Shown here one piece after another: positions 47,299 to 63,389 of a stretch of DNA of 64,000 nucleotides (position 1 is its first letter; every line of letters begins with the position of its first letter). This DNA comes from Promethearchaeota archaeon. GTDB lineage: Archaea; Asgardarchaeota; Heimdallarchaeia; Hodarchaeales; Hodarchaeaceae. Where the stretch lies: assembly GCA_048938105.1 (NCBI GenBank), contig JBHLMN010000013.1:1-64000 (forward strand), given 5' to 3'. Both the position numbers and the translations under genes were made by a program. The notes under the pieces are model-generated. The model made no database searches. It had not been told where the DNA came from and saw only the letters and a list, made by a program, of their open reading frames with translations.

Positions 47299-47454
47299 TT
47301 ATACTGAGTTCTGTACAAGAAGAATTTCAAAGAATACATCATTTAATGCATCCTTGGGGAAACATTCGGAAAAACATGTGCAATATCTGCAATTTGGATA
47401 GAAATCCTTACAAATTCTTTCTTTAATTATTTTAGATTTTGCATATTTTTTCAT
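47299..47454 (-). CDS. Cys-rich microprotein copy A (51 aa), stand-alone C-x6-C-x2-C-x5-C Fe-S-loop motif; not in the ORF track
   Basis: MKKYAKSKIIKERICKDFYPNCRYCTCFSECFPKDALNDVFFEILLVQNSV*; SD GAAGGTG; paralogous to 62867-63079 and 63192-63389. Confidence 0.85.
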   Translation of the reverse strand: MKKYAKSKIIKERICKDFYPNCRYCTCFSECFPKDALNDVFFEILLVQNSV

Positions 47455-47477: not shown

Positions 47478-47549
47478 TTTTTCTTCTTATTTTACAAATA
47501 CTCTTCATAGAACATCTGACTTGTCTTTTGACCTTATCAGGTCAGGTAA
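47478..47549 (-). ncRNA. Conserved structured 5' leader, copy A (candidate cis-regulatory RNA)
   Basis: 69/72 identical to 62771-62842; hairpins UGACCU-GAUA-AGGUCA and CAGAUGUUCU-AUGA-AGAGUAUUUG. Confidence 0.6.
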
Positions 47550-47584
47550 AAATATAAAAAACAAGTTAATAAAATGTGAGTACA
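47530..47584 (-). promoter_or_regulatory. Shared regulon promoter of microprotein A
   Basis: TGTAC-TCACA-TTTTATTAA-N22-GACC-TGATAA-GGTC. Confidence 0.7.
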
Positions 47585-47783
47585 CAAATGAGATTTTTTT
47601 TTAAGATAATAACAATTTATTGATTCTCATAACATATAATCATAGTTTCATTAGTTATTTTAGGTGTACAATAATATCATACAATTTTTTCCGCTTTAGT
47701 GATATTAATGACACTTCATTATTGTCAAATGTATGAAAATTCGCAATTTCCTTATGCTTCAATGTTTATTATAGAAAATGTTA

Positions 47784-47843
47784 AATAATAATTAATTAAA
47801 AGTAATAATAATTAATTAAAAGTAATAATAGTTAATTAAAGGT
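47784..47843 (+). repeat. Three tandem 20-bp repeats (AATAATAATTAATTAAAAGT), probable operator array
   Basis: 47784-47803 and 47804-47823 are identical; 47824-47843 has 2 mismatches; about 100 nt upstream of 47942. Confidence 0.8.
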
Positions 47844-47941
47844 ATTATATATCCTCAACTAATATGAAAAGTTGTAATTGAATCAAGAGAGCATGTGAAA
47901 ACTAGTAAAAACAAAATCAATAATTAGAATAAGAAATAAAA

Positions 47942-48655
47942 ATGCAAAAAATTAAAGAGATCGATTTAATTGGAAATTCTTTGATCAAAAACCATAGGGA
48001 TATTCATAAACTTAACCATAACAAGCAAAACACAGTTTATAGGGTTTTCCTATATTTTTTTGACGAGATTGCAGGACACATTCCATTATTTAAATATCCA
48101 TCAACACCATTAAATGAGAAAGACAGACAAATACTCTCAATTCATAGTATTTGGTGGCACCAAGATAAATTCTTAACACCCTTCAAATTTAATTCAATCG
48201 ATCTTGAACTGGGAGGGATTACATATACCGCCACACTATTTCTTTGTCACACCCATAGAACAAGAAGACGATCTGGAATGGATTCAACTAAGTGGAAACC
48301 TGAAAGATTCGTTCTAATCGTAAAAATTCCTTCATTAGTCTCTTTTAGTACAAAAGAATTATTATTTAAGCTAAAATCAAGAATCCAAGGTGAAATTGGT
48401 GAAGATTTATGCTTTTTAGTAGAAAATTACATAAAAAAAACAGAGAATTCATATGTTGGTGACTTCATTGAAAAGAAATCTAGAGCTATTCTAAAACAAC
48501 TCACATCCTTATGTAAATCATTCAGTCCCAAAAAAAATAAAGTAAAAATCATAGCTAAACCAGAAAGAAAGACAATACAAGATATTCTTATAAATTCAGA
48601 TTCGAGAGAGATTAACGAATTACGATTTTCAATTCCTAAGCATAAGAATAATTAG
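47942..48655 (+). CDS. uDENN/longin-like domain protein
   Basis: VFLYFFDEIAGHIPLFKYP resembles the uDENN F-D-x3-G-P-x5/6-P start; later strands YTATLF and RFVLIV. Confidence 0.55.
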   Translation: MQKIKEIDLIGNSLIKNHRDIHKLNHNKQNTVYRVFLYFFDEIAGHIPLFKYPSTPLNEKDRQILSIHSIWWHQDKFLTPFKFNSIDLELGGITYTATLFLCHTHRTRRRSGMDSTKWKPERFVLIVKIPSLVSFSTKELLFKLKSRIQGEIGEDLCFLVENYIKKTENSYVGDFIEKKSRAILKQLTSLCKSFSPKKNKVKIIAKPERKTIQDILINSDSREINELRFSIPKHKNN

Positions 48656-48671
48656 GAGACTTGGAAACTTA

Positions 48672-49709
48672 ATGACCAAATTACTGAAAGATCCACTTAA
48701 TCTGAAATTGTTGTTACTCCTTTGTGCTGGAGAAGGAGTAAGTATAAATGTCAGTGCTCTCTCTCAACAATTAAATAAACATAGAAATACAGTTAATGAG
48801 AGAATAAAACAGCTTTTGAAATATAGAATTATTGAAAGACCTCTGTATCCTTTAATATGGTTGTTTAAAGAATATCCTCTATTGGTTGTCTCAAAAGATA
48901 AATTTTATCGGGATGAAGCAACCAAAAATTCTATTGAAAGCGACCCACATATCTTCGCTGCATTTTTCTTTCAAGAAGAGGTCTATAATACATTAACAAT
49001 TCAATTCCATGAAGACCTTTTTTCTTATGAAACTTGGTGTGATAAGATTTTACAGGAGGAAAAAATCATCAAAGAAGAGGATCGTCATCCTCCTGATGCA
49101 TTACTTTTCAGTACAAAACGTATTTTAAAGTATGACCCTTCAGCACCTTTTAGAATTATTAATCTAGGTTTTAAAAAAGGAAATATTAAGAAGATTGGTG
49201 ATCTTGAGCTAGATTCCTTATCTTTAAGAATCTTAAGAATGGCTTTAAATGGAAAAGCAATAAGAACAAATGAGAATTTTTTAGCACGAGCCCTAAATGT
49301 TAATAGAAATACTATTATTAGGAGGATTCAAACCTTACTAAAAGAAAATATAATCGGAAATCCTATTTCAAGATTCCCAAGAGTTATAGTCCCTCCCGAT
49401 TTCATGCTTATATTCTCTTTATTTGAAATTAGGAAAAATTGTGCAATTGTTGAGAGATTCATTAGAAACGATCCTCATGTTCCCCTCCTGATTAAAGCTA
49501 ATGTTGGAAGATACAACTATTTTGTCGCAAATACTTTTAGAACCATCGAGGATCACTTAGAATGGCAAGAGAATTATAATCAAAGGTTCCAAAACTGTAT
49601 AGATGGAATCAAGAACACTTACCTTTCTCCTGCAATGACCTTTGCTATTGGGCAAAATTTTGTCTCACTTGAACTCATTAGAAAGAAATTACAATTATTA
49701 CAGGGATAA
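48672..49709 (+). CDS. Tandem (double) Lrp/AsnC-like wHTH regulator
   Basis: Two HTHs (NVSALSQQLNKHRNTVNERIKQLLK; NENFLARALNVNRNTIIRRIQTLLK), each followed by a DPH-containing RAM-like domain. Confidence 0.8.
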   Translation: MTKLLKDPLNLKLLLLLCAGEGVSINVSALSQQLNKHRNTVNERIKQLLKYRIIERPLYPLIWLFKEYPLLVVSKDKFYRDEATKNSIESDPHIFAAFFFQEEVYNTLTIQFHEDLFSYETWCDKILQEEKIIKEEDRHPPDALLFSTKRILKYDPSAPFRIINLGFKKGNIKKIGDLELDSLSLRILRMALNGKAIRTNENFLARALNVNRNTIIRRIQTLLKENIIGNPISRFPRVIVPPDFMLIFSLFEIRKNCAIVERFIRNDPHVPLLIKANVGRYNYFVANTFRTIEDHLEWQENYNQRFQNCIDGIKNTYLSPAMTFAIGQNFVSLELIRKKLQLLQG

Positions 49710-49811
49710 AAATTTTTTATTTTTAATTTGGTTCGGATCTTCCATCTTAAATTAATTCAGCCTTCTTCTAATTCCTTTCTTATAGCTCCTATGCAGATAT
49801 CAGTTTATATA

Positions 49812-50387
49812 TTAGTTTTCCTTTAATAATTTTGCGTTTTGCTCTCCTAATAGTGAAACTAAGAAGTCTATGATTTTATCTATCGCATTCAATACTTCGA
49901 ATGATATTTCAGAGCCAAAGTCAAGGTTTTTTGGTTTGATCCCTAATATTCGTATTAATACTCCTGATTGATTTTTCATGTAATCTACCAAGACTTTCAT
50001 CGGGATGAGATGAGTACTTAACGTTGCCTGTTTGTTTTCGAGATCTGATGGTTTAAAAAAGCCAATAGTACCAGCTGGGATCTCATTATTTCCAAATTGA
50101 ACAGCATCAATTATTAAACAATGAGTAACATTTTCTTTTAAAAGAACAGAAAGAAAATTTTCCAAAGATCCTCCTACATTGTATATTAGAAATTTATTAT
50201 TACGTTCCATTCGTAACTTATGATAAATCATTGGACCTAAACCATCATCTCCTCTCAAATCATTCCCAACACAAAAGATACTTAATTTGCCTTTTTTCGC
50301 AGCCTTGAGAAATGAAAAGAATTCCAGCATATCAAACACATTATCTAAAATAACAATGATATTAAAAGACTTATTTTTCAGTGTCAA
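49812..50387 (-). CDS. hycI: Hydrogenase maturation protease (HycI family)
   Basis: CVGNDLRGDDGLG, IIDA, STH and LGIKP..LDFG motifs; alternative start ATG 50330. Confidence 0.9.
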   Translation of the reverse strand: MTLKNKSFNIIVILDNVFDMLEFFSFLKAAKKGKLSIFCVGNDLRGDDGLGPMIYHKLRMERNNKFLIYNVGGSLENFLSVLLKENVTHCLIIDAVQFGNNEIPAGTIGFFKPSDLENKQATLSTHLIPMKVLVDYMKNQSGVLIRILGIKPKNLDFGSEISFEVLNAIDKIIDFLVSLLGEQNAKLLKEN

Positions 50388-50813
50388 TTGTAATCAATAC
50401 TATTGCTAAGAGTATTTTGCCCACTATAATGTGATTGACTAATTTCTTTAATCTAAGATTTAATATCAAGTTATTTTGCATACCATTAGCTATTGGAGTA
50501 TTTATTATGGAATAACTATCAGCTCTTAAGTAATTACTTATAAAGGGCAATATCTAAGAAAATAATATTACTTATAAGCTCATTAAAGATATACACTTAA
50601 TTTGTATGAATAATAAGATAAAAATAATGATTTAAGGTATTATCACAGAAATGTGTCAAAATTGTATATTTTAAGTCTATAAAAACTACAAAAACACCAT
50701 AATTATTTTTGAAACTGTTCAATATTTTTGTATAATTTATTCCAATTTCAATCGCGTAATATATGTTTTTTATATTTATTTTTGTTATTTTTTGACATAA
50801 ATTCCTTAATTTT

Positions 50814-50868
50814 TGTACACATGATTTATTATTTGCTTTTTCTTATAATTACTCGACCATTATTGGAA
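50814..50868 (+). promoter_or_regulatory. Shared regulon promoter of the malic enzyme/hydrogenase operon
   Basis: TGTAC-ACATG-ATTTATTAT-N22-GACC-ATTATT-GGAA, with the same spacing as three other promoters. Confidence 0.6.
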
Positions 50869-50896
50869 GTACTTCATAAATAAGAAGGAATAATTA

Positions 50897-52288
50897 ATGG
50901 CAAAAGAAAGTGTTGAAGACCTACTCAAAAAAGCTGATATTCCTAATCAAAAGGCTGAATTATGGCATCCATATTATCGAGGAAAGATCGAAGTTGTTTC
51001 AAAAGTAAAAATCGATAATTTTGACGATTTTGCTGTTTGGTATACACCCGGAGTGGCAAGACCGTGCAAAATCATAGAAAAAGAAATGAAAGTTGCAAAA
51101 GCACAGAATTGGTCTTATAACTCGGTGTATGACTTGACGAATAAGTGGAACAACGTTGCAGTTGTATCTGATGGCAGTAGAGTCCTGGGATTAGGTGATA
51201 TTGGTCCTGAGGCTGCTATGCCCGTGATGGAGGGTAAAGCGTTATTATTTAAATATCTTGGAGGCGTAGATGCGTTTCCAATTTGTTTAAATTGTCATAA
51301 TGCCAATAAAATAATTACAACGGTAAAATGTATTCAGCCTAGCTTTGGTGGAATCAATTTAGAAGATATTTCTCAACCAAAATGCTTCAAAATACTCGAT
51401 GCTCTTCGTAGTGATAAGGATGTTCATATTCCTGTTTGGCATGATGATCAGCAAGGGACAGCAACCATTATTGTAGCAGGCATGTTTAACGCCTTAAATT
51501 ATCTCGATAAGAAATTAAATGAGGTAATTATTTCTATGGTTGGGGCAGGAGCTGCTAATATGGCAGCTGCTAGAGTTATGATAAGTTCTGGAGTCCCTAA
51601 AAAGAATATCATCATGATAGATTCTAAAGGAATTCTACATCCCGAAAGAAAGGATATTGAAGTAGTTAAGAAAAAATATAGTTTAAAATGGGATATTTGT
51701 CTCAATTCTAATGGTGAAGGAAGAGTAGGAGATATGTTTGATGGAATGAAAGACACAGATATGGTAATTGCGGCTAGTAAACCTGGTCCTGGAGTTATAA
51801 AACCAGAACATATTCAAGCAATGGCAGACGATCCAATTGTATTTGCTTGTGCCAACCCAGTTCCTGAGATATGGCCTTGGGAGGCAAAAGAGGCTGGAGC
51901 TGTGATAGTAGCCACTGGTCGATCTGATTTCCCAAACCAAGTGAATAACAGCCTTGGTTTTCCTGGAATCTTTCGAGGAACACTTGATGTGATGGCAATT
52001 ACTATTTCAGATGAAATGTGCATTGCTGCAGCTAAGGAATTGGCAAAAACAGCTCAAGATAAAGGATTAGAACCAAACTACATTATACCCTCAATGGATG
52101 ATTGGGAAGTATTTCCTCGAGAAGCAGTAGCAGTAGGTCAGCAAGCAATCAAAGAAGGTATTGCTAGACTTAAACTAACTCGTCAAGAAGCATATGAACA
52201 CGCTGAAATCCTTATTAGACGAGCAAGAGAGCAAACTCATTCATTGATGGATTTAGGATATATTTTGAAAGCTCCCTCAATTTATTAG
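50897..52288 (+). CDS. NAD(P)-dependent malic enzyme
   Basis: [47 protein letters not shown] and [13 protein letters not shown] motifs. Confidence 0.95.
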
Positions 52289-52338
52289 AAGTATTAATAT
52301 CAAATTTCGCTTGAAAAAAAAAGGAAAATGTAAAATTT

Positions 52339-52737
52339 ATGGCAGAAATAAATGCGGAAGAAACACCTAAAGGTTTTCCACTTAAATTAAATGGGTTAAA
52401 AACTTGCTTACCTTCAAATGGAATAGACACCTCCTCACCTCTAGCTGAATCCTTCGAACGTTGTTCTTATTTTGTTATTGCAGATTTAAACCGTCAGGAA
52501 ATCACAAGTTTTGTGAATTATGTTCAAACATTTCCAAGAGGTGAGAGTATTCAAACAGCGCAAATGATAATCGATCAACAAGTCGAAACAGTAATTGTAC
52601 CTGAAATCGATTCCAGCACTTTAAATATCCTTCAAAAAGCAGGAATAAAAATCTTTTTAGGTATTGATGGAACCATTCAAGAAAATATCGATTTATTTAG
52701 TCAGGGACGATTAGTTGAGATAAAAATCTCCAATTGA
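52339..52737 (+). CDS. NifB/NifX-family (FeMo-cofactor-binding-like) protein
   Basis: FERCSYFVIAD, TAQMI...VETVI, LQKAGIKIF..G.L motifs. Confidence 0.8.
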   Translation: MAEINAEETPKGFPLKLNGLKTCLPSNGIDTSSPLAESFERCSYFVIADLNRQEITSFVNYVQTFPRGESIQTAQMIIDQQVETVIVPEIDSSTLNILQKAGIKIFLGIDGTIQENIDLFSQGRLVEIKISN

Positions 52738-52874
52738 ATTTCTCAAACAAATCTAGGAGGTGTTTGAAGGAAAGAAAAGTGAGATAACTTTATATTAATG
52801 TTCCTTAGAATAAAATTTCAAACAAAGAAGCAATTTTTCTTCTACTTTTTCAAGCTATTTATGGTGTTTAATCC

Positions 52875-53222
52875 TTGGAATTCTTAAACGAGGTTCTACC
52901 AGCATTAATAGTTGCAATTATTGCAGTATTATGTTTGTATGGCTTCGCTAAATGGTTAAATATTGGGAGGTTCCAGACAACGAGATTAAAACAACAACTA
53001 TATCAAAGCGGAGAGACCATACTTCCTCGAAAGCGGCGTTACTTGGATCAAACATTTATTTGGATATCATACTTTTCTACAGCTCATGTTATATCATTTA
53101 TGTTTGCTACATTGTTGATTCTTTCTCTAGGTATAAGAATTAACATATTTTATCCTTTTGTGTATTTTGTTATAACTTCATATGCAATTTTCATGTTAGC
53201 AATAAAAACACCAGAGTCATAA
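52875..53222 (+). CDS. Membrane subunit, NuoA-like
   Basis: Three TM helices with a KQQLYQSGE loop (cf. NuoA K..PYECG); first membrane gene of the cluster. Confidence 0.7.
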   Translation: MEFLNEVLPALIVAIIAVLCLYGFAKWLNIGRFQTTRLKQQLYQSGETILPRKRRYLDQTFIWISYFSTAHVISFMFATLLILSLGIRINIFYPFVYFVITSYAIFMLAIKTPES

Positions 53223-53241
53223 ATTAAAGAGGTGTTATTAT

Positions 53242-53679
53242 CTGATAAATAGGAAAAAACTTGCAGTAAAAGCCTTAACAAACAGTCCATGGGTGGGACA
53301 TCTTAATTGTGGCTCCTGTAATGGATGTGACATTGAAGCATTGTCATTATTTGTTCCTCGATATGATGTTGAAAGATTTGGCATTATTTTAGAAGGATCA
53401 CCTAGACATTGCGACATCCTATTGGCAACAGGTGCAGTTACCAACCAATACATCCTAAGATTGAAACGTATTTATGAGCAAATGCCCGATCCAAAATTCG
53501 TGATTGCAATTGGTAATTGTGCAAGTACTGGGGGTGTTTACCAAGAAACCTATAACACACTAGATGGGGTAGATAAGGTGGTACCTGTTGATATCTATAT
53601 ACCAGGTTGCCCACCTCGTCCTGAAGCTATTGTTGATGGTGTTATCAAATTAATTAACAAAATTCGGCTTGATTTTTAA
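53242..53679 (+). CDS. Group 4 [NiFe]-hydrogenase small subunit (NuoB/MbhJ-like), probable CTG start
   Basis: SPWVGHLNCGSCNGCDIE, SPRHCD, GNCA..GG and PGCPPRP; the conserved SPW lies upstream of the track start. Confidence 0.92.
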   Translation: MINRKKLAVKALTNSPWVGHLNCGSCNGCDIEALSLFVPRYDVERFGIILEGSPRHCDILLATGAVTNQYILRLKRIYEQMPDPKFVIAIGNCASTGGVYQETYNTLDGVDKVVPVDIYIPGCPPRPEAIVDGVIKLINKIRLDF

Positions 53680-53697
53680 GATATAAGTATTAATTAT

Positions 53698-55467
53698 TTG
53701 GTGATTTTAGAAATGGAAGAAATTAAGCCTGAAACACTAGAGGATGTCGTAAAAAACCTAAATCTTTCAGTTCGTGAATCATCTGGGTTTCCACTGGATT
53801 TATATGTTACAGTTCAACCAGAAAGTCTAATCAAAGTAATAAAACAGCTAAAAGAAAAATATAATGTTACACATCTTTTAACAATCATTACTCAAGACCA
53901 AACGGATAGTTATAACTTACTTTATCCGTTCTCCATAAATTTAAGGAATCAGAAAAGTGGGAAATTAATTTTGGATCTCAAGCTTGATAAAAATGATCCA
54001 AAAATAAGTTCAATTGTAACAGAAATACCTGGAGCTATTTTATATGAGCGAGAAGTCTATGATATGATGGGTATCACGTTTTTAAACCATCCTGGTCTCC
54101 AGCGTTTATTAACACCCGATTCTTTGCCAAATTACATTTACCCCTTAAGGAAAGATATTACTTTTACGGAAATTCGTGAGAGATTAGCTGAATCAAGGAA
54201 AGAAAGAGAAGCTGAAAAAGAGCTAAAGGAATATATAAAGCGAGAGTATGTTGATTTTACTTCTGAAAGATCTGATTACTCAATATCTGTAGGGCCTCAA
54301 CATCCCTCTTTGGAAGAACCAATTCGTTTTATTTTTCATGTCAAAGGGGAGACTGTTAAAGCCATTGATTTGCGTTTAGGATTTTCTCATCGAGGGATAG
54401 AAAAGGCATTTGAAAGTCGTACATGGATGCAAAACCTCTATTTAGCTGAAAGAATATGTGGGATATGCAGTGATGCTCATCAATTATGTTATGTCCAAGC
54501 TGTAGAGAAATGTGCTGAATTAACTGAAGTAATACCAGAACGAGCACAGTATATTCGAGTAATAATGGCTGAACTTGAACGTATACACTCACATTTATTA
54601 TGGTATGGAATTCTAGCCCACGATACTGGCTTTGATACAATGTTTCAATACACTTGGCGAGATAGAGAAATTGTGATGGATATTCTGGAGGAGATCTCTG
54701 GGAACCGTGTTAATTATGCTATGCATACCATTGGCGGGGTTCGCCGAGACATTGATTCAGAAGTGACAAAAGTCAAAATTATTCCAAAATTAAAAAATCT
54801 TCGAAAAAGGGTTGAAAAGCATAAAAAAATGATAATCCAGCAAAGAAGTTTTATTTCTCGTCTAAAAGGCATAGCAATATTAACAAGAAAAGATGCAGCA
54901 CGTTTTTGTGTTGTGGGGCCAACTGCTCGAGCTAGTGGAATAAATATTGATGTTCGAAAAAATGATCCTTATGGTGCTTATGATCAGCTCTCGTTCAATA
55001 TTCCTCTTTTAACTGAAGGTGATATTTTAAGTGGATTAATAAATCGCTTAGATGAAAGTCTTATCTCTATAGATCTAGTAATTGATGCACTCAAAGCCTT
55101 GCCTCCAGGTAATTTAACAATTAAAGTACCTCGACAAATTCCTGTAGGAGAAGGAATGAGTTGTGTTGAAGCACCAAGGGGAGAGAATGTGCATTATATT
55201 CGATCGAATGGTAAGAATAATCCAGAACGTCATAAAGTTCGTGCTCCAACCCTCGCCAATATGCCAAGTTTGGTATATCGATTAATTGGTGTACAAGTAG
55301 CAGACATTCCTCCTGTCATCCGAGTCATCGATCCATGCATCGGTTGTATGGATAGAGTCACTTTCATAGACTCAGGAAAAGGAAAAAAGCTTGATTTATC
55401 AGGAAATCATTTAATAAGTCGGGCAAATCGTGCTTATCGTTTGGGTACTAAAATTCTTGACTTTTAA
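53698..55467 (+). CDS. Group 4 [NiFe]-hydrogenase large subunit, fused NuoC/NuoD-like
   Basis: EREVYDMMG (C module), GPQHP, L1 ERICGICSDAH, EAPRGE, L2 DPCIGCMDR plus a 36-aa C-terminal extension. Confidence 0.95.
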   Translation: MVILEMEEIKPETLEDVVKNLNLSVRESSGFPLDLYVTVQPESLIKVIKQLKEKYNVTHLLTIITQDQTDSYNLLYPFSINLRNQKSGKLILDLKLDKNDPKISSIVTEIPGAILYEREVYDMMGITFLNHPGLQRLLTPDSLPNYIYPLRKDITFTEIRERLAESRKEREAEKELKEYIKREYVDFTSERSDYSISVGPQHPSLEEPIRFIFHVKGETVKAIDLRLGFSHRGIEKAFESRTWMQNLYLAERICGICSDAHQLCYVQAVEKCAELTEVIPERAQYIRVIMAELERIHSHLLWYGILAHDTGFDTMFQYTWRDREIVMDILEEISGNRVNYAMHTIGGVRRDIDSEVTKVKIIPKLKNLRKRVEKHKKMIIQQRSFISRLKGIAILTRKDAARFCVVGPTARASGINIDVRKNDPYGAYDQLSFNIPLLTEGDILSGLINRLDESLISIDLVIDALKALPPGNLTIKVPRQIPVGEGMSCVEAPRGENVHYIRSNGKNNPERHKVRAPTLANMPSLVYRLIGVQVADIPPVIRVIDPCIGCMDRVTFIDSGKGKKLDLSGNHLISRANRAYRLGTKILDF

Positions 55468-55482
55468 TGGAGAAATAAATGA

Positions 55483-56622
55483 ATGCCATCTATTAATTCT
55501 GTATTAAGACCTCTGATTTTTTTCATGATTTATTTCCTAATTATAGCCAGTTTATTCTTTTTTTTTCAAGAATCTCCTGAGATGATTATTCTCTTGAAGT
55601 ATTTTCTCTTCCCAGGTATTCTTTTTATTTTTACTGGGGCTTTATTTTATAATTGGTTTGAACGGAAAATTTACGCTCGGATGCAAAACCGAAAAGGCCC
55701 CCGATTAATTCAACCTGTTTACGATGTTCTTAAACTACTCGTTAAAGAAGATATTACACCAAATGGTGTTGATACGCCTGAATTCAATGTAATTCCCCCA
55801 ATTCAATTACTTTTAGCACTCTTATTGGCCTTCTTTTTACCAATATATATAGCAGAAGGATTAATCTCTTTTGATGGTGATTTGCTTTTTTTGCTATTTT
55901 TATTGGCAGTGTTATCAGGATCAATCTTTTTGCTTGGATGGGCTAGTAACAATCCATATGGTTTACTTGGAGGATCTAGAGCTGCAATTGCAGAATTATC
56001 ACTCGAAATTCCGTTAACCATAGCTTTTATTGCCCCTGCTATCTTAGCAGGGTCACTCCGTATCTCAAATATCGTTCAGAGCGAATTCAATCTAATTGAT
56101 ATTCCCTTGAATGTAATCTTTCAAATGAATGATTTTTCTATTCATCATCTGTTGTATTTAATTCCTCTTTCTCTTCTCTTCTATATTGCAGTATTGTCTG
56201 CAAATGCAGTCCTAGAAAAAGTTCCATTCGATCCAGCTCACGCAGAAGTTGAAATTGTTGGTGGTTGGACAGTAGAACTTAGTGGGAAAAAGCTTCTTTA
56301 CATTCGCCTTGCAAATTTAGTAACGGAATTTGCAATTGCAGGGATTATAGCAACTATTTTCTTAGGTGGTCCAGGATTTAGTCCATTAAACAAAATGTTC
56401 GATGGGATTCTAATTGTTGGACGATGGGATGTATTTTATTATATTATAAACTTTTTAACCTTTATTATTAAAACTACACTATGTATTTTTTTTATTACGA
56501 TTAGCCGTACAGTTCTATCCCGCCTTCGAATTGACCAATTAGTTCAATATTTTTGGCGGTATTATTTACCTGTTTCTTTCTTTGCATTAATAGTGATAAT
56601 CTATCTAGCAGGAGTAATTTAA
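55483..56622 (+). CDS. NuoH/MbhM-like membrane subunit
   Basis: ERKIYARMQNRKGP, QPVYDVLKLLVKE and PFD..AE.EIVGG..VE.SG motifs. Confidence 0.93.
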   Translation: MPSINSVLRPLIFFMIYFLIIASLFFFFQESPEMIILLKYFLFPGILFIFTGALFYNWFERKIYARMQNRKGPRLIQPVYDVLKLLVKEDITPNGVDTPEFNVIPPIQLLLALLLAFFLPIYIAEGLISFDGDLLFLLFLLAVLSGSIFLLGWASNNPYGLLGGSRAAIAELSLEIPLTIAFIAPAILAGSLRISNIVQSEFNLIDIPLNVIFQMNDFSIHHLLYLIPLSLLFYIAVLSANAVLEKVPFDPAHAEVEIVGGWTVELSGKKLLYIRLANLVTEFAIAGIIATIFLGGPGFSPLNKMFDGILIVGRWDVFYYIINFLTFIIKTTLCIFFITISRTVLSRLRIDQLVQYFWRYYLPVSFFALIVIIYLAGVI

Positions 56623-56624
56623 AG

Positions 56625-57083
56625 ATGGTTAAAATACCTGATCTTTTTCCTGTGTTAAGTGAAGTTACTCGGAATTTAATAAATAAAACAGTTACAGTCG
56701 AATTTCCTTTTGAGAATGTAAAAGTTCCAGATGGATATAGAGGGGCACCAGAAGTCAATCCAAAGCTATGTATTGTTTGTAAAACTTGTGAAAAAATATG
56801 CCCAACACATTGCATTGAGATTATCCCTGTGAATCCCAGTGAAATTGCAGATTATTCTCAGGAGAAAGGAATTCCCTTTTGCTTTTCAATTAACCTTTCA
56901 CAATGTATGTTTTGTCAGGAATGTGAGAAATCTTGTCCAGTAGGTAAGAAAGGAGAATCTGCTATAAACCTTAATTCAAGTCGATGGTTAATGGCTAATT
57001 ATAAAATTGCAGATACAACTGAAAAAAAACTTGTTTATCAGAGACCTAAGAGAAAAAAGAAAATTAACGCTCAAGGAAGTTAA
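56625..57083 (+). CDS. NuoI/MbhN-like 2x[4Fe-4S] subunit
   Basis: YRGAP, CIVCKTCEKICP and CMFCQECEKSCP; start ATG 56625. Confidence 0.93.
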   Translation: MVKIPDLFPVLSEVTRNLINKTVTVEFPFENVKVPDGYRGAPEVNPKLCIVCKTCEKICPTHCIEIIPVNPSEIADYSQEKGIPFCFSINLSQCMFCQECEKSCPVGKKGESAINLNSSRWLMANYKIADTTEKKLVYQRPKRKKKINAQGS

Positions 57084-57088
57084 ATCCA

Positions 57089-57373
57089 ATGGCATCGGTC
57101 GAAGTAGTAATCTTAACTATATTTACAATAGCAATGGCGGCTGCAGCGCTTGAGGTGGAAAATATAACTCGTTCTATCCTTTGTTTAGCGCTTTCGTCTA
57201 TTGGAGTTGGTTCTATATTCTTTTTTGTTGGTGCTAGTTATGCTGCCGTTTTTGAATTCGTTCTTTATGCTGGTGTTTTAATAATTTTGTTTATTGTTGC
57301 AGCTAGTTTAACTGAAATCACCGAAAAAGAGACTATTGGAGAGGATCTCTTGATAAAGGAGATAAAATCATGA
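57089..57373 (+). CDS. NuoJ N-terminal-half-like membrane subunit
   Basis: GASYAAVFEFVLYAGVLIILF. Confidence 0.85.
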   Translation: MASVEVVILTIFTIAMAAAALEVENITRSILCLALSSIGVGSIFFFVGASYAAVFEFVLYAGVLIILFIVAASLTEITEKETIGEDLLIKEIKS

Positions 57374-57642
57374 ATAATAAGGAAGTATTAGGAAGAATCG
57401 GATTTGCTATCATTGGCTTTATTTTGTTAGTTCTTATTGTTGATGCACAAGATAGTGGAGCTTGGGCAACCTTACAAACTGTGAAACCAAATTTAGCAAA
57501 CGAAAGGAGTTTGGGGTTATTATGGACCACTCTAGCAACCTCAACTATAATTCAAGGTTTTATGCTTTATGCAGCCCTTTTGGGTTCAAATTTACAGTTC
57601 TCGCCACCAACAAAAGAGAGAGAAAAAGAGGAGGAGTCTTAA
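57370..57642 (+). CDS. Small membrane subunit, probable NuoJ C-terminal half
   Basis: Two TM helices, LGLLW; ATGA overlap with the preceding gene. Confidence 0.65.
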   Translation: MNNKEVLGRIGFAIIGFILLVLIVDAQDSGAWATLQTVKPNLANERSLGLLWTTLATSTIIQGFMLYAALLGSNLQFSPPTKEREKEEES

Positions 57643-57974
57643 TGGCGTTTTCTGTAGATTCTTTCACTGATTTTGAAATTTTACTAGCTTTATCGTTTAT
57701 CATGCTCTTAATTGGTATTTATGGCCTAATTACAAAACGTTTAGCTATTAAAACAATAATGGCTTTAGAAATCCTTGTTACTGCACCTAATATAGCATTT
57801 ATTGCTTTTGGTTTTACTCAAAATACAAATATAGATCCACAGACACAGGCTTTTGTAATTATATCCTTATCAGTTGGGGCTGCCGTTATTGGTCTGGCTT
57901 TAGCTTTTCTTCGCAATTTGTACAAACACTTCGAAACAACTGAAGTGGACGCTTTTACAACACTTAAAGGATGA
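57642..57974 (+). CDS. NuoK/MnhC-like subunit
   Basis: IGIYGLITKR...IMALEI, DPQTQAFVI, LKG end; start ATG 57642. Confidence 0.88.
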   Translation: MAFSVDSFTDFEILLALSFIMLLIGIYGLITKRLAIKTIMALEILVTAPNIAFIAFGFTQNTNIDPQTQAFVIISLSVGAAVIGLALAFLRNLYKHFETTEVDAFTTLKG

Positions 57975-57975
57975 G

Positions 57976-59946
57976 GTGGCTAAAAATATGTCCAGCTGGC
58001 GAATAACAACTTTTGAAAACCTTATTGATGTTTCTCTTCAACCTTGGTTTTTAGTTTTCGCTATTCCCATTGTTGGAGCATTTTGTTCACCAATTGTAGG
58101 TAGATTTAATTCAACTCTACGTAATTTTTTTTCAATTGCAACAATCGGGATTTCAACCCTACTTGCAGGATATCTGGTTGCACTTGGAACTGCAGAAGAA
58201 CATATAATATTATTCGTTCCAACAATTATTAACAATTCAACTTTTGATTTTTTCTGTAATTCAATAAATCTTGACGCTTTAGGTGTCTTTATCGCTCTAA
58301 TTGCATCAGGATTGGGTTTCTTAATAGCAATTTTTTCATTAGAATATATGAAGGAAGACACAGCTCAAGGAAGATATTATTTTTTCCTCCAGCTTTTTAT
58401 TGGTGGAATGGTTCTTCTTGTTCTTGCTGGGGATTTGATATTCCTGTACTTTGGCTGGAAAATGGTAGGAGTGTGTAGTTATTTCCTAATTGGTCACTGG
58501 TTTCATAAACCTGAACCACAAGGTTCTTTATGTGCGAAGTCAGGAATGAAGGCCTTTCTTATGACACTTGTAGGTGATATTGCTCTTTTGATTGCACTTG
58601 GAATCCTATGGTTTGAATTAGACACAATTAATATTAAAATCATAACTCAAGCGTTTAATTCAGGAGTAACATCTGGACTCCAAACATTCGTTGCTTTACT
58701 CATTCTTCTTGGGGCAATTAGTAAATCAGCGCAATTTCCATTCATTACATGGTTAAGTAGTCCAAGAGATATTAATATTGATGCCATGCAGGGCCCTACA
58801 ACCGTCAGTGCACTCATACATGCCGCAACTATGGTAAAGGCGGGAGTTTATCTTATTTCAAGGTTTTATATGGTTTTTGCGCCAGTAAACATAACATTTT
58901 TTATCATGATCATTTCACTTATCGCTGCGATTACTGCATTGATAACTGCAGCTTCAGCTTTAGCATCCATTGATATTAAGCGTGTATTGGCTTATTCAAC
59001 TGTTAGTCAACTAGCCTATATGTTTATGGGCCTCTCTATTGGCTTTTTAGCTTATATTGAGAAACCAATAATTAGCATCGAAGGTTTTATGGGGACTCAG
59101 TTCCATCTATTGTCACATGCAATATTCAAAGCTCTTCTCTTCCTTTCAGCAGGAGCAATTATACATTCTTTAAATGAAGAAAGGAATATTAAATGTATGG
59201 GTGGATTAAAAGATGAATTACCAATTATTCATTGGACAACATTAATAGGAATATGTGCTTTAGCTGGTGTTCCATTCTTCTTTAACGGTGGATATAGTAA
59301 AGAGGCGATATTAGGCTCAATAGTTAACTTCGTTTTTAGTGGTGCAAAATTAGCTCTTTTTGGATGGATAATTTATGGGGCTGGTATGATAACAGTAATT
59401 TTAACATCGTTATACGCTTTTCGACTCTTTTTTCTAATTTTTTATGGCAAAAAGTCAGAAAGTTTGAAAGTAAACAAACCTGGCTTTATTATGCGGGGAG
59501 TGACATCCTTTTTAGCAATTCTTGTTGTTATAACTGGATTTATTGGGCCTATTCTTTTAAATACCCATTTTAGACCAATGTTTAAGAATTCAGAATATCA
59601 TTCACCATTAATATACATTCCTGATCCTTTACATCAGCCATTAGCTTTTATCAACATGGTTATTGTAATTGGATTGGTTATTATCGGATTTGGTCTTAGT
59701 TATCACATTTACTACAAGGGTCCAAGAACGATTATGCCTACTGTTCAGAAGAACTGGATTCTTAACGCTTTCCATACCATAATTATAGAGGGATTTTATC
59801 TAGATACGATTTACAACGAGCTCATAGACTTATTCATGTTTTTAAACTGGAAACTTCGAAAGTTACAGACTGGGGATCTCAATTTTAACATGGCAGGAGT
59901 AGGTATGATAGCTATTCTAATAATCATAACTTTATTGTTATTTTAA
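57976..59946 (+). CDS. NuoL/MnhA-like antiporter subunit
   Basis: SYFLIGHW, KAF, KSAQFP, AMQGPTTVSALIHAATMVKAG, IKRVLAYST, HAIFKALLF and LQTG motifs. Confidence 0.93.
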   Translation: MAKNMSSWRITTFENLIDVSLQPWFLVFAIPIVGAFCSPIVGRFNSTLRNFFSIATIGISTLLAGYLVALGTAEEHIILFVPTIINNSTFDFFCNSINLDALGVFIALIASGLGFLIAIFSLEYMKEDTAQGRYYFFLQLFIGGMVLLVLAGDLIFLYFGWKMVGVCSYFLIGHWFHKPEPQGSLCAKSGMKAFLMTLVGDIALLIALGILWFELDTINIKIITQAFNSGVTSGLQTFVALLILLGAISKSAQFPFITWLSSPRDINIDAMQGPTTVSALIHAATMVKAGVYLISRFYMVFAPVNITFFIMIISLIAAITALITAASALASIDIKRVLAYSTVSQLAYMFMGLSIGFLAYIEKPIISIEGFMGTQFHLLSHAIFKALLFLSAGAIIHSLNEERNIKCMGGLKDELPIIHWTTLIGICALAGVPFFFNGGYSKEAILGSIVNFVFSGAKLALFGWIIYGAGMITVILTSLYAFRLFFLIFYGKKSESLKVNKPGFIMRGVTSFLAILVVITGFIGPILLNTHFRPMFKNSEYHSPLIYIPDPLHQPLAFINMVIVIGLVIIGFGLSYHIYYKGPRTIMPTVQKNWILNAFHTIIIEGFYLDTIYNELIDLFMFLNWKLRKLQTGDLNFNMAGVGMIAILIIITLLLF

Positions 59947-59958
59947 GGTGGTACAATC

Positions 59959-61491
59959 ATGATTGTGATCTTTGGACTAAATATTACATTAATTACTTTC
60001 GTTATTATCCCCCTTTTTTTTTCATTTTTTCTTATACTTTTAGAAAAGTTATTTTCATCCTCACGGTTAAAAAAGAATTTTATTCATATAATAGCATTAA
60101 TTGGGGCATTATTTGATTTACTTCTTGCTTTTCTTTTCTGTTCCGAGATCCTGAAGACTGGAAAAGAATTTTTTATAGATACTTCTTTCCTCGTTTTAAA
60201 AACTGATATCACATCTCTCTTTTTTATACTGATTTTTACAACAATTCATTTTACTGTATCCATTTATTGTGTCAATTTTATGGATCAATTCGATGACCTT
60301 GCTATTTTTTATGCGTTATTATTTGCATTAGTAACAGGTCTTAATTTGATAGTTATGGCTTCTGATTTTTTCACGCTTTTCGTAGCTTATGAGGGAATGG
60401 CATTATGTGCTTATTCCATGGTTGGATTTTACCGTAATCTAGAATCATCTGAAGCAGGATTTAAGTATCTGATGATGAGCTCAACTGGAAGCCTCTTATT
60501 ATTATTCGGCTTAGCCTTACTGTATGGAGTAGTAGGAAGCCTTAATTTTGCCTACTTGTCAACTGCCAACTTAGATAACAATTTGATGTTATCTTTAGCG
60601 ATTATCTTGATGGTTCTTGGATTTGGAATAACAGCTTCGATGTTCTTCTTAAATACTTGGCTTCCAGATGCTCATCCTGCCGCACCACCACCTGCTAGTG
60701 TCATTCTATCAGGAATTGTAGTTATCGCAGGGACATATGGATTATTAAGAACTTTCACTCTTCTTATAATTCCTTTAAACATCAATTCAGAACTATCATG
60801 GTCTAATCTGTTTATACTTATCGGTATTTTTACATCATTACAAGGGAATCTCTTTGTACTCATTCAATTCAAGAGAACTGATTCGCAGGCAAGAAATCTT
60901 AAACGGATATTAGCTTTTTCAACAATTTCACATATGGGCTACCTATTAACTGGAATAGGTACTGCTAATATCATGGGTATAAGCGGAGTTCTACTGCATG
61001 CTCTCAATCATGCAATTGCAAAAGGAATTATGTTTATGATTGCAGGTTATCTTATTTTTTCTGGAGGTTCGCATTGTCTCGATCATTATAAGGGATTAGG
61101 CCGTCAAGATCCAGTGATTGGAACCTGTTTAGTTATTGGTTTGTTTTCATTGGCCTCAATACCTCTTACTGGTGGTTTCTGGTCGAAATTACAGCTAATA
61201 CTTGGTCTTTTTGAAAATGGTTATCCCTTCGGAATATTCGCAGGTGTAAGTATGCTTGGATTAACTTTTTTCGCTGCAATAGGTTACCTTTGGATAATCA
61301 AATATATTGTTATGGATCATTCAGATATGGATTTAGAATATATTCATAATTTTAAGAAGATGAATCTAAGAAGGGGCGGATTTATGAAGTTAGCGATTAT
61401 CATATTGACATTAATTGTGGTTATTCTCGGATTATTACCAGGTCCATTCATAAATTTAACATTACAGGCTGCACATTATCTATTTGGATAA
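59959..61491 (+). CDS. NuoM/N (MnhD-like) antiporter subunit
   Basis: EAGFKY, WLPDAHPAAP, LKRILAFSTISH and PLTGGFWSK motifs. Confidence 0.92.
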   Translation: MIVIFGLNITLITFVIIPLFFSFFLILLEKLFSSSRLKKNFIHIIALIGALFDLLLAFLFCSEILKTGKEFFIDTSFLVLKTDITSLFFILIFTTIHFTVSIYCVNFMDQFDDLAIFYALLFALVTGLNLIVMASDFFTLFVAYEGMALCAYSMVGFYRNLESSEAGFKYLMMSSTGSLLLLFGLALLYGVVGSLNFAYLSTANLDNNLMLSLAIILMVLGFGITASMFFLNTWLPDAHPAAPPPASVILSGIVVIAGTYGLLRTFTLLIIPLNINSELSWSNLFILIGIFTSLQGNLFVLIQFKRTDSQARNLKRILAFSTISHMGYLLTGIGTANIMGISGVLLHALNHAIAKGIMFMIAGYLIFSGGSHCLDHYKGLGRQDPVIGTCLVIGLFSLASIPLTGGFWSKLQLILGLFENGYPFGIFAGVSMLGLTFFAAIGYLWIIKYIVMDHSDMDLEYIHNFKKMNLRRGGFMKLAIIILTLIVVILGLLPGPFINLTLQAAHYLFG

Positions 61492-61702
61492 CTTCTAATA
61501 TTTCCACATTTATCAAATAAGATATTTTTAAAATATAAACGTGTAATAAATGAGAATTTTATATTTAAAGAAAATATAATTTTGATAATATTTTTCCTTC
61601 ATATATGAAACATTGATTTACATGAAAAGGGCAGAAATCAATACTAATCATATGTCTTAAAATTCAGTGGGGACGAAATCTTCCAAGAAATAAGATTTAT
61701 TC

Positions 61703-61757
61703 TGTACATATATTTTATTAACTCATTATTGGTATTTATAATCGACCCTTGTTGGTC
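61703..61757 (+). promoter_or_regulatory. Shared regulon promoter of the small-ORF cluster
   Basis: TGTAC-ATATA-TTTTATTAA-N22-GACC-CTTGTT-GGTC. Confidence 0.7.
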
Positions 61758-61785
61758 AAGCTAAATCTAATTTGGGATAATACAG

Positions 61786-61932
61786 ATGAAAAGTATTAGC
61801 GAACAGAAAGAAAATTTACGATCATCCACAGATAATAAACGAATTTCAAAAGATATTAGACTTAGAAATCAAGATCATGAAACTAAATGGTTGCCAAAAA
61901 GAGGTAACCATTACGTTATAATTGAATGGTGA
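61786..61932 (+). CDS. 48-aa hypothetical microprotein (below the track cutoff)
   Basis: MKSISEQKENLRSSTDNKRISKDIRLRNQDHETKWLPKRGNHYVIIEW*, just downstream of a regulon promoter, weak SD GGGA. Confidence 0.5.
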   Translation: MKSISEQKENLRSSTDNKRISKDIRLRNQDHETKWLPKRGNHYVIIEW

Positions 61933-61997
61933 CATGTCCATCTGATTCATTACCCAATATGAAATTTAATAATCCATGAATAAGAGGATGATCAGAA

Positions 61998-62210
61998 TTG
62001 GCACTTAAAAACGATTTAGTAACTTCACATAATTTAATACTCAGTTTTATTCTATTATCAAGCATTTATATGATTGTATTTGACTGGAGAATTATTATTT
62101 TCGCCATTATTATAGTCTCAATATTTGGAGGCTATTTGGCTTTTATCTCTGTAGGATTCATGGATTTAGATTATAGAACAAAAAATGAAAAAAAGAATTT
62201 GGAAGAATGA
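61998..62210 (+). CDS. Small two-TM membrane protein
   Basis: SD GAGGA, TTG start, two hydrophobic helices. Confidence 0.6.
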   Translation: MALKNDLVTSHNLILSFILLSSIYMIVFDWRIIIFAIIIVSIFGGYLAFISVGFMDLDYRTKNEKKNLEE

Positions 62211-62446
62211 AAATGACAATAAAAGAAGGAATATACCCATTCTCTCAAACAACATTAAGAAAAGATCGTGTTAGTTCATTAGAACTAAATAGTGTGAGAT
62301 CTAAAGCCATATTAGAGCAAAATTACATGAGTTTAAAAGGTTTAGACGACGAACTTTTTAAAACTCTTTCAGAGAAATCGTTTAAAGAAGCTAAAGAAGT
62401 CACGTATGAATTAATTGAAGAAGATAATGAAAATCCTTATCTATAA
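62207..62446 (+). CDS. Small hypothetical protein
   Basis: ATGA overlap with the previous ORF. Confidence 0.6.
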   Translation: MKMTIKEGIYPFSQTTLRKDRVSSLELNSVRSKAILEQNYMSLKGLDDELFKTLSEKSFKEAKEVTYELIEEDNENPYL

Positions 62447-62735
62447 GGTATTTTCTTGATCTTTATCTTAACCAAAGACAAGATACAGAGAATCAATCGT
62501 TAAACTAAAGGAACCAATCAATCTAGGGAAATAATCGTCTAAGTTCAAAATGTCAATTAATACGTATAAAACTGGCATCTATGATATCAATCATCTTATT
62601 CATTCTTTCAAAAGAGACATTTCATTTCTATCTTATTAATCAATATTAATGTACATAAAGTACCTATCTTAATCTTGTAGTTATTTGTTTTTTAATTCTA
62701 TAATTTAGATTTTTCTCACATAATCGTTTTTTTTT

Positions 62736-62790
62736 TGTACATACGTTTTATAAATTCTTGATTAATATAATTACCTGACCTGAAAAGGTC
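62736..62790 (+). promoter_or_regulatory. Shared regulon promoter of microproteins B/C
   Basis: TGTAC-ATACG-TTTTATAAA-N22-GACC-TGAAAA-GGTC. Confidence 0.7.
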
Positions 62791-62842
62791 AAAAAACAAG
62801 TCAGATGTTCTATGAAGAGTATCTGTAAAATAAGAAGAAAAA
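62771..62842 (+). ncRNA. Conserved structured 5' leader, copy B (candidate cis-regulatory RNA)
   Basis: Hairpin UGACCU-GAAA-AGGUCA (GNRA loop) and 10-bp stem 62802-62811/62816-62825 with an AUGA loop; 69/72 identical to copy A. Confidence 0.6.
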
Positions 62843-62866: not shown

Positions 62867-63079
62867 ATGATGAGCCTACCGCGATCTAAAGAAGTTAAAG
62901 AAAAAATTTGTAAGGATTTCTTTCCAAACTGCACATATTGCACTTGCTATAGCATGTGCTTTCCCACAAATGAAACAGAAGATTTATCATCTCAAGCTCT
63001 CTTAGAACAAGAAAAAGCATTTAGAGAAGCACAATTATCATCAGAAACCCTAGTTGGTTTGAAAGAATCAACTACTTAA
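62867..63079 (+). CDS. Cys-rich microprotein copy B (70 aa), C-x6-C-x2-C-x5-C
   Basis: KEKICKDFFPNCTYCTCYSMCFP; SD GGAGG. Confidence 0.85.
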   Translation: MMSLPRSKEVKEKICKDFFPNCTYCTCYSMCFPTNETEDLSSQALLEQEKAFREAQLSSETLVGLKESTT

Positions 63080-63191
63080 CTAAATAGCTAAGTACTTCCA
63101 GATATATAATTAAACAAAATCACAAGCTAGAAGTTCTATTAAGACTATCAACAAAATAAGAAGAAAATAAGAGCAAGAAGGTATGAAATAA

Positions 63192-63389
63192 ATGATGGAT
63201 CCAAAAGCAAAAGAAAAAATTTGTAAAGATTTCTATCCAAATTGCAGATATTGCACTTGCTTCAGTATGTGCTTCCCTAATTGTCTAGCTCAAGATGTAT
63301 CATCTCAAGCCCTTTTAAGACAAGAAAATAGGAGAATAAAGGAATCACATATAACGCCCAGGGTTTCTTTAGTACTAAATAATTCTTAG
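63192..63389 (+). CDS. Cys-rich microprotein copy C (65 aa), tandem paralog of B
   Basis: KEKICKDFYPNCRYCTCFSMCFPNC; SD GAAGGT; degenerate leader at 63122-63167. Confidence 0.85.
   Translation: MMDPKAKEKICKDFYPNCRYCTCFSMCFPNCLAQDVSSQALLRQENRRIKESHITPRVSLVLNNS

Follow-up and report, generated by a model that had tools for sequence, protein, structure and literature searches.

Genes and promoters of the locus

We analysed a 64,000-nucleotide stretch (the window) of contig JBHLMN010000013.1, from the Hodarchaeales assembly GCA_048938105.1, with respect to four promoters of common design and a regulator gene that lies among them. At its left end, the region carries a Cys-rich microprotein of 51 amino acids (aa) (microprotein A, 47299..47454, minus strand), followed on the plus strand by a fused double Lrp/AsnC-type regulator of 345 aa with two helix-turn-helix (HTH)-RAM units (48672..49709), which we propose as the binder of a TGTACA box. 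A HycI-type hydrogenase maturation protease (49812..50387, minus) is divergent from the promoter of an operon encoding malic enzyme, a NifX-like protein and a complex-I-ordered group 4 [NiFe]-hydrogenase (50897..61491, plus), in which both CxxC Ni ligand motifs and the C-terminal tail of the hydrogenase are present. Two conserved small open reading frames (ORFs) of 70 aa (61998-62210) and 79 aa (62207-62446) form a plus-strand cluster at 61998..62446, and the Cys-rich microproteins B (62867-63079) and C (63192-63389) occupy 62867..63389 on the same strand; microprotein C retains a copy of the leader and has no promoter of its own. Microproteins A, B and C, the malic enzyme/hydrogenase operon and the small ORFs are putative targets of the regulator.

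Positions within the promoters are numbered from the G of GACC, the putative +1. Promoter A (-66 to +15; 47529..47609, minus) has TGTAC at 47584-47580, a TATA-like box and its putative +1 at 47543. The malic enzyme/hydrogenase promoter (50789..50869, plus) has TGTAC at 50814, +1 at 50855 and a degenerate right arm (GGAA), and the promoter of the small-ORF cluster (61678..61758, plus) has TGTAC at 61703 and +1 at 61744. Promoter B (62711..62791, plus) has TGTAC at 62736, +1 at 62777 and a predicted 5' hairpin from +1 to +14. An earlier note on this DNA had described the four as one exactly spaced pattern, TGTAC-N5-WTTTATWAW-N22-GACC-N6-GG(TC). We recovered it at every position given there (47584-47530 on the minus strand, 50814-50868 with the right arm GGAA, 61703-61757 and 62736-62790), with TGTAC and GACC 41 nt apart, start to start, at all four sites. 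A motif common throughout the genome would have spoken against the regulon that the note proposed; a scan of the 5.85-Mb genome returned the full pattern four times, always in this window, and it is conserved in congeners.

Since the pattern had been fitted to these four sites, we tested it by controls independent of the fit. Shuffled windows gave 0.12 matches to TGTAC-N36-GACC and 0.013 to TGTAC-N5-TATA, against four observed in each case, and a motif-blind repeat finder returned three of the four sites as one family. Against a weight matrix derived from relatives (14 sites), the window sites scored 74.7, 68.3, 45.1 and 43.0 bits, while the next position in the genome scored 2.7; when only the columns not used for selection were counted, they ranked 1, 2, 3 and 5 genome-wide. 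As a negative control, a pattern whose spacing was off by one base produced only a chance match. Promoters A and B are a single 175-nt duplication (75% identity), forming an inverted repeat that brackets the cluster, and the window therefore holds three independent sites rather than four. Between non-duplicate sites the spacers are 42-53% identical and the flanks 29-45%. The statement that the 50814 and 61703 loci are otherwise not homologous to A and B thus applies to the flanking DNA and fails in two details, as the 61703 leader shares AAGAGTA with A and B, and the 79-aa ORF downstream of it has a SQALLEQ-like stretch in common with microproteins B and C (a weak profile match, probability 23%). 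These sequence comparisons confirm that the four elements are real, and they support a shared promoter architecture that behaves like a regulon.

In what follows, G000 is the genome of the window, other G numbers are congeners and L numbers are individual loci. The motif was found in 11 of 20 congeners and in additional assemblies, including metagenomes, making 40 distinct sites; outside the genus, 378 Asgard genomes yielded five one-mismatch matches against four control matches. The regulon has few members and is restricted to a single genus. The mapped sites of relatives that were checked lie sense-upstream of genes. The genes that follow encode malic enzyme, ferredoxin, hydrogenases of three unrelated types, microproteins, a C_GCAxxG_C_C protein and OsmC, the last next to a TusA-like gene. 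In many cases the operon of the regulator itself is also preceded by the motif, the regulator gene lying inside a motif-led unit in G002, G004, G013, L117, L175, L178 and L179. A different group 4 enzyme follows the motif in G020 and L112, and a ferredoxin-malic enzyme-Hox-type operon in L118, with a similar arrangement in G009. These contexts support the conclusion that the motif tracks function and not gene homology, staying with hydrogenase and malic-enzyme operons when the hydrogenase type is swapped. The name hydrogenase regulon, used in the earlier note, is slightly narrow for a set that also includes OsmC, the C_GCAxxG_C_C protein, ferredoxin and the regulator.

Alignment of the 40 sites revealed an element longer than first described. 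Its upstream parts are a T-tract at -66 to -61, AAA at -56 to -54 and TTT directly before TGTAC; TGTACA itself (-41 to -36) is followed by a non-consensus position for the TFB recognition element (BRE) and by TTTATWAW at -30 to -23. Downstream are AT at -10/-9, WKTAC at -7 to -3, a pyrimidine at -1 and GACC from +1. All 40 sites have a pyrimidine at -1 and a purine at +1, and counted from the first T of the TATA-like box the putative +1 is 30 nt downstream, features that fit a start site; spacing and bases of this putative core promoter are compatible in 40/40 sites with the archaeal expectation of a TATA box about 26-28 nt before a pyrimidine-purine start. The gap from TGTAC to the TATA-like box is exactly 6 nt in the 40 sites and in an independent family set described below. 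A second TGTACA box, missed in the earlier note, occurs at about -127 in 19/39 sites, including promoter A (47665..47670) and promoter B (62650..62655); the malic enzyme/hydrogenase promoter of the window has none. Upstream regions of tRNA genes gave no clear promoter consensus, a scan for sigma-70 promoters, which is not applicable here, stayed at chance level, and Rfam covariance models gave no match at gathering score within the window.

The fused regulator and its proposed link to TGTACA

The 48672 protein contains an internal duplication, its halves being 32% identical over 97 aa (E 2.5e-10). It has HTH matches in Pfam and a match to PH0061, and an AlphaFold model (pLDDT 92) found its best fold matches, by Foldseek, in NirDL and Lrp proteins. 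The N-terminal HTH and RAM fold of the Lrp/AsnC family is thus present twice over; the single unit of about 150 aa that forms dimers or octamers is not, the protein being a single-chain pseudo-dimer. Both HTH recognition helices are conserved across 105 homologues, the closest of which are in records labelled Hodarchaeota, Hodarchaeales and Heimdallarchaeota; reports of fused family members extend to Bathyarchaeia, Thorarchaeia and Thermoplasmatota. In the family tree, all motif-bearing loci fall into one group of two well supported subclades, joined at 82/62, while the other, well supported clade is found mostly beside Glu/Leu/Phe/Val dehydrogenases and includes the paralogue C4:76877.

That paralogue, in the genome of the window (G000:C4:76630-77944, 45% identity to the regulator), is divergent from a Glu/Leu/Phe/Val-dehydrogenase-like gene heading an HdrA/FrhB/GltB cluster. 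The promoter of the dehydrogenase-like gene carries TTTTGTACA, conserved in G003, G008, G009, G011 and G014; the TATA-like run there is 1-2 nt more distant. Split or partial regulator copies stand beside intact sites at L118:13552-14621, G002:C58:45326-46408, G008:C24:756-1010 and G009:C1:1738042-1738485, reflecting either decay or assembly error.

We compared the occurrence of the motif with that of the regulator clade. The motif is present in 11/11 genomes with the clade (two as fragments) and in 1/10 without it, these being related and not independent genomes. Neither G010, which has the orthologous hydrogenase operon, nor G011, which has a ferredoxin-malic enzyme-hydrogenase operon, contains the clade, and neither contains the full motif. 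The hydrogenase promoter of G010 (L169:9330-9360, on G010:C9) bears a perfect GTACA-N5-TGTAC palindrome, and a divergent family member is encoded elsewhere in that genome.

The strongest test was one independent of the genus, in 44 non-redundant upstream regions taken from distant homologues of the regulator (41-51% identity); these regions may share ancestry, so that the counts overstate independent events. GTACA was the top enriched 5-mer (72 against 16), and the boxes cluster at two distances from the start of the regulator gene, 174-177 nt and about 120 nt. On the divergent strand, TGTAC-N6-TWTAW, the spacing of the window, was found in 10/44 regions, where 0.3 were expected and 200 shuffles gave at most two, and on the other strand in none; when TGTAA was also allowed, a relaxation added after looking, the count rose to 20/44. 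Other promoters on the same contigs gave 0/103, and the genome of the window gave 4/2881 with no spacing peak. Distant homologues are divergent from Glu/Leu/Phe/Val dehydrogenase genes in 19/44 regions. The targets differ between the genus and this set; what the two have in common is the regulator family.

One residue in the recognition helix of the second HTH varies among these homologues (L180-L253), being mostly Lys where the promoter has TGTAA (8/9) and more often Arg where it has TGTAC (6/10), a pattern confounded by kinship and suggestive only. TGAYA/TRTCA is also enriched near genes of the family; we weighed it as a possible operator that would match TGACC but discarded this reading, since much of the enrichment lies at the expected GGTGA-type ribosome-binding site.

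These results suggest that TGTACA is a putative operator of the fused Lrp protein and that the four promoters probably form one small regulon, most plausibly an activated one. The earlier proposal of the 48672 regulator as a candidate binder is strengthened to a likely one, the box following the Lrp family both within the genus and in the 44 regions. Several observations weigh against this reading. G019 has a site and only a distant regulator homologue was found there, in a genome that is 84% complete. Regulator, targets and motif travel as one gene cluster, and co-occurrence within the genus alone cannot single out the regulator. No matching second half-site lies beside the box: a LysM-like 15-bp palindrome occurs at 1/40 sites, and instead of the 13-17 bp semi-palindrome with an AT-rich centre seen at Lrp-activated promoters there is one strong half only. 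The family-wide promoters lack the GACC part, which the 48672 protein alone does not explain. Finally, an expectation-maximization search recovered no genome-wide TATA or BRE consensus in this AT-rich genome, so that the putative TATA box is assigned from spacing and from boxes of the TATAAAT type that the family set has at the corresponding position.

Proposed mode of regulation and alternative explanations

In the mechanism we propose, the HTH domains of the 48672 protein would bind TGTACA at -41 to -36, beside the non-consensus BRE and TATA, and in many promoters also the second box at -127; phased A/T tracts between the boxes may aid wrapping of the DNA round an Lrp oligomer. Activation would come about by helping TBP and TFB onto a weak promoter, as for Ptr2, LysM and Ss-LrpB. 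Lrp activators are known to combine a constrained site a few bp from the BRE with upstream helper sites (PMC2995911), and here too the site keeps a constant distance of a few bp to BRE/TATA, on their upstream side; a weak BRE also marks activator-dependent promoters (PMC5937170). By this analogy we lean towards activation over repression. Transcription would start at the G of GACC, and where the complementary arm is present the RNA would begin with a short hairpin. Because of what is known of the family and of the dehydrogenase context of the distant homologues, the effector may be an amino acid, and malic enzyme and the H2-evolving hydrogenase may be switched on to dispose of reductant during fermentation.

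The same regulator could instead act at the same box as a repressor or a sign-switching factor, its dimer spanning TGTACA and the TATA-like hexamer, occluding BRE and TATA and perhaps touching WKTAC at -7. The step from TGTACA to the hexamer is exactly 11 bp and the two are alike at 4/6 positions, the perfect GTACA-N5-TGTAC palindromes upstream of the G010 hydrogenase and in L187 have the same 11-bp period, the regulator is often within its own motif-led operon, and LysM has an accessory site over BRE and TATA (PMC3597687). Nevertheless, the conserved A/T tracts reach upstream to -66, the hexamer of the family set varies like a TATA box (TATAAAT or TTTATTA) and not towards TGTACA, and the bases at the BRE position depart from the consensus, a trait of activator-dependent promoters (PMC5937170); we regard repression at this box as less likely than activation, though a credible competitor. 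A lower probability still attaches to the idea that an alternative TFB reads TGTAC as an extended BRE, or that an unlinked factor binds there, with the Lrp gene a mere passenger. The genome does have four TFB genes, three with an altered C-terminal recognition helix, but several TFB genes, counted without assignment to a particular paralogue, are also present in motif-negative congeners, and multiple TFBs are general in the genus. Moreover, the box lies outside the 6 nt adjoining TATA and recurs at -127 with no TATA after it, and in other lineages it is enriched only beside genes of the fused-Lrp family. Of the two roles that the earlier note had allowed for TGTAC, activator site or alternative-TFB BRE, the 10/44 promoters beside homologues favour a putative regulator site and the second is disfavoured. 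That all four sites lie within 15 kb, with A and B as an inverted repeat round the cluster, might suggest leftovers of local promoter duplication, or recombination or transposon ends, devoid of shared regulation. This is very improbable, as the boxes stayed fixed while the spacers drifted, sites face into unrelated gene families in many species, and no recombinase or transposase is tied to them.

A separate matter is the GACC-N6-GGTC palindrome, for which a repressor operator or a 5' hairpin had been suggested. Its left arm is nearly invariant across the sites. The right arm lies at +11 to +14 in microprotein, small-ORF and OsmC promoters (the short class), is lost at four malic-enzyme promoters and has moved 24 nt, to +33 to +38, in seven sites; both spacings occur within the single-regulator genomes L118 and G009, and the malic promoter of G002 retains the upstream half only. 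In the displaced class 42/42 cells pair, including G-U and one A-U, a result that did not beat the shuffle control (288/500). Pairing holds for 83% of cells in the short class, where most changes are G-U or double ones (2-12/500 shuffles, inflated by kinship); no covariation was seen between positions -1 and +15. If the palindrome were a DNA operator at which a second factor represses, this would account for the fixed six-base spacing of the short class, for a GACC that is nearly invariant even where it has no partner arm, for the A kept at +15 in 33/40 sites and for three sites with changes that break inner pairs. However, the loss and displacement of the right arm, the character of the short-class changes, the missing covariation of -1 with +15 and the half-palindrome in G002 make such an operator doubtful, and a 5'-terminal RNA hairpin probably fits better than a fixed operator. 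The hairpin leaves the invariance of GACC unexplained; GACC may act in the manner of an initiator, or be contacted by the regulator or by some other protein.

Two candidate roles for the leader and 5' end were rejected: a short ORF from the leader's ATGAAGAGT, as its ATG is not conserved, and base-pairing between the 5' GACC and the start codon of malic enzyme, which is predicted in this genome only.

Related systems and accessory observations

Among the closest parallels are archaeal activators. LysM of Sulfolobus shares the Lrp fold, a box ending in GTAC, a fixed position just upstream of BRE/TATA and extra sites, but it is a one-unit protein at a 15-bp semi-palindrome (e.g. GTACG-N5-CGTAC) 11 bp from the BRE (PMC3597687), whereas here a fused two-unit protein would read one strong 6-bp box that abuts the BRE, with targets in energy metabolism. 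Ptr2 and Ss-LrpB likewise combine a constrained promoter-proximal site with upstream helper sites, redox targets and autoregulation (PMC2995911); they differ in sequence, in the helper site, which here is 86 bp away (about 54 bp in GDH-linked homologues), and in not being single-chain pseudo-dimers. TFB-RF1 of Pyrococcus offers a three-part promoter of site, weak BRE and TATA and a regulator within its own target operon (PMC5937170), but it is a non-Lrp protein, and its TCTG-N5-CAGA motif occurs in 0/40 sites. In Thermococcales, the single factor SurR coordinates hydrogenase and redox genes through a GTT-N3-AAC site and a CxxC redox switch (PMC12162507). It differs by an ArsR-related in place of an Lrp fold, and the distinction from a SurR site drawn in the earlier note holds, as GTT-N3-AAC is found in 0/40 sites and the 48672 protein has no CxxC. 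NrpR operators read GGAA-N6-TTCC or ACC-N7-GGT; these motifs occur in 0/40 and 1/40 sites, respectively, which does not indicate an NrpR regulon. The best structural match to the 48672 protein, siroheme decarboxylase NirDL (PDB 4CH7; E 1e-10, template-modelling score about 0.5), is also a fused double Lrp-like protein. The two are nonetheless only 11-12% identical, and the 48672 protein has no Pfam NirDL/Ahb match, conserved recognition helices and a regulatory rather than a tetrapyrrole context. The target operon is of the kind described for Heimdallarchaeia complex-I-like group 4 hydrogenases, whose structure and phylogeny are treated in 10.1101/2024.07.04.601786.

A literature search, made mostly without subscription papers, yielded no description of the motif or the regulator, none of a promoter or regulator for those Heimdallarchaeia hydrogenases and no described regulator or promoter motif for Hodarchaeales. 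Models of eukaryote origin give a central place to the hydrogen metabolism of Hodarchaeales, which have been proposed to be the nearest relatives of eukaryotes. The principle of an Lrp factor beside BRE/TATA is already known; what would be gained, for a group in which hardly any gene regulation has been described, is a regulator-and-site pair whose protein, six-base box and exact positions are all specified, so that it is open to in vitro tests that need no culture of the organism. A probable site is also assigned to an uncharacterised archaeal regulator family, three orphan microprotein families are tentatively tied to hydrogenase expression, and a set of inferred Asgard core promoters is provided. 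Joining these strands, we offer as a speculation, which we hold to be improbable in its full extent, that the single-chain double-Lrp family of Asgard archaea, Bathyarchaeia and Thermoplasmatota reads TGTACA and would generally switch both the fermentation of amino acids and the disposal of reductant; one clade would have been rewired to hydrogenases in this Hodarchaeales genus, where the promoters would have gained a second layer of invariant GACC start, 5' RNA hairpin and structured leader, read by another factor.

Some further features of the region were recorded. Leaders of the microprotein and small-ORF units (62777-62835, 47485-47543 and 61744-61800) have a second predicted hairpin with an AURA loop, AAGAGTA is found at +39 or +46 of the leaders at 23/40 sites (8 expected), and folding z-scores reach -4.9 (B) and -5.7 (G013). 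Among the TFB genes, located at G000:C38, C31 and C52, the recognition helix is TPVTIRNR versus TEVTVRNR in three of four paralogues, and two have C-terminal extensions. Microprotein B gave no usable match in the ESM Atlas, and microprotein homologues that lack the promoter motif are also found at G000:C50:27742-27855, L074 and L067. Members of the 79-aa ORF family share an acidic tail, ENPYL, that does not vary. A 237-aa ORF (47942-48655), with no Pfam match, is directly 5' of the regulator only in G000, G003, G012 and G014, and between it and promoter A lie three 20-nt AT-rich tandem repeats (47784-47847).

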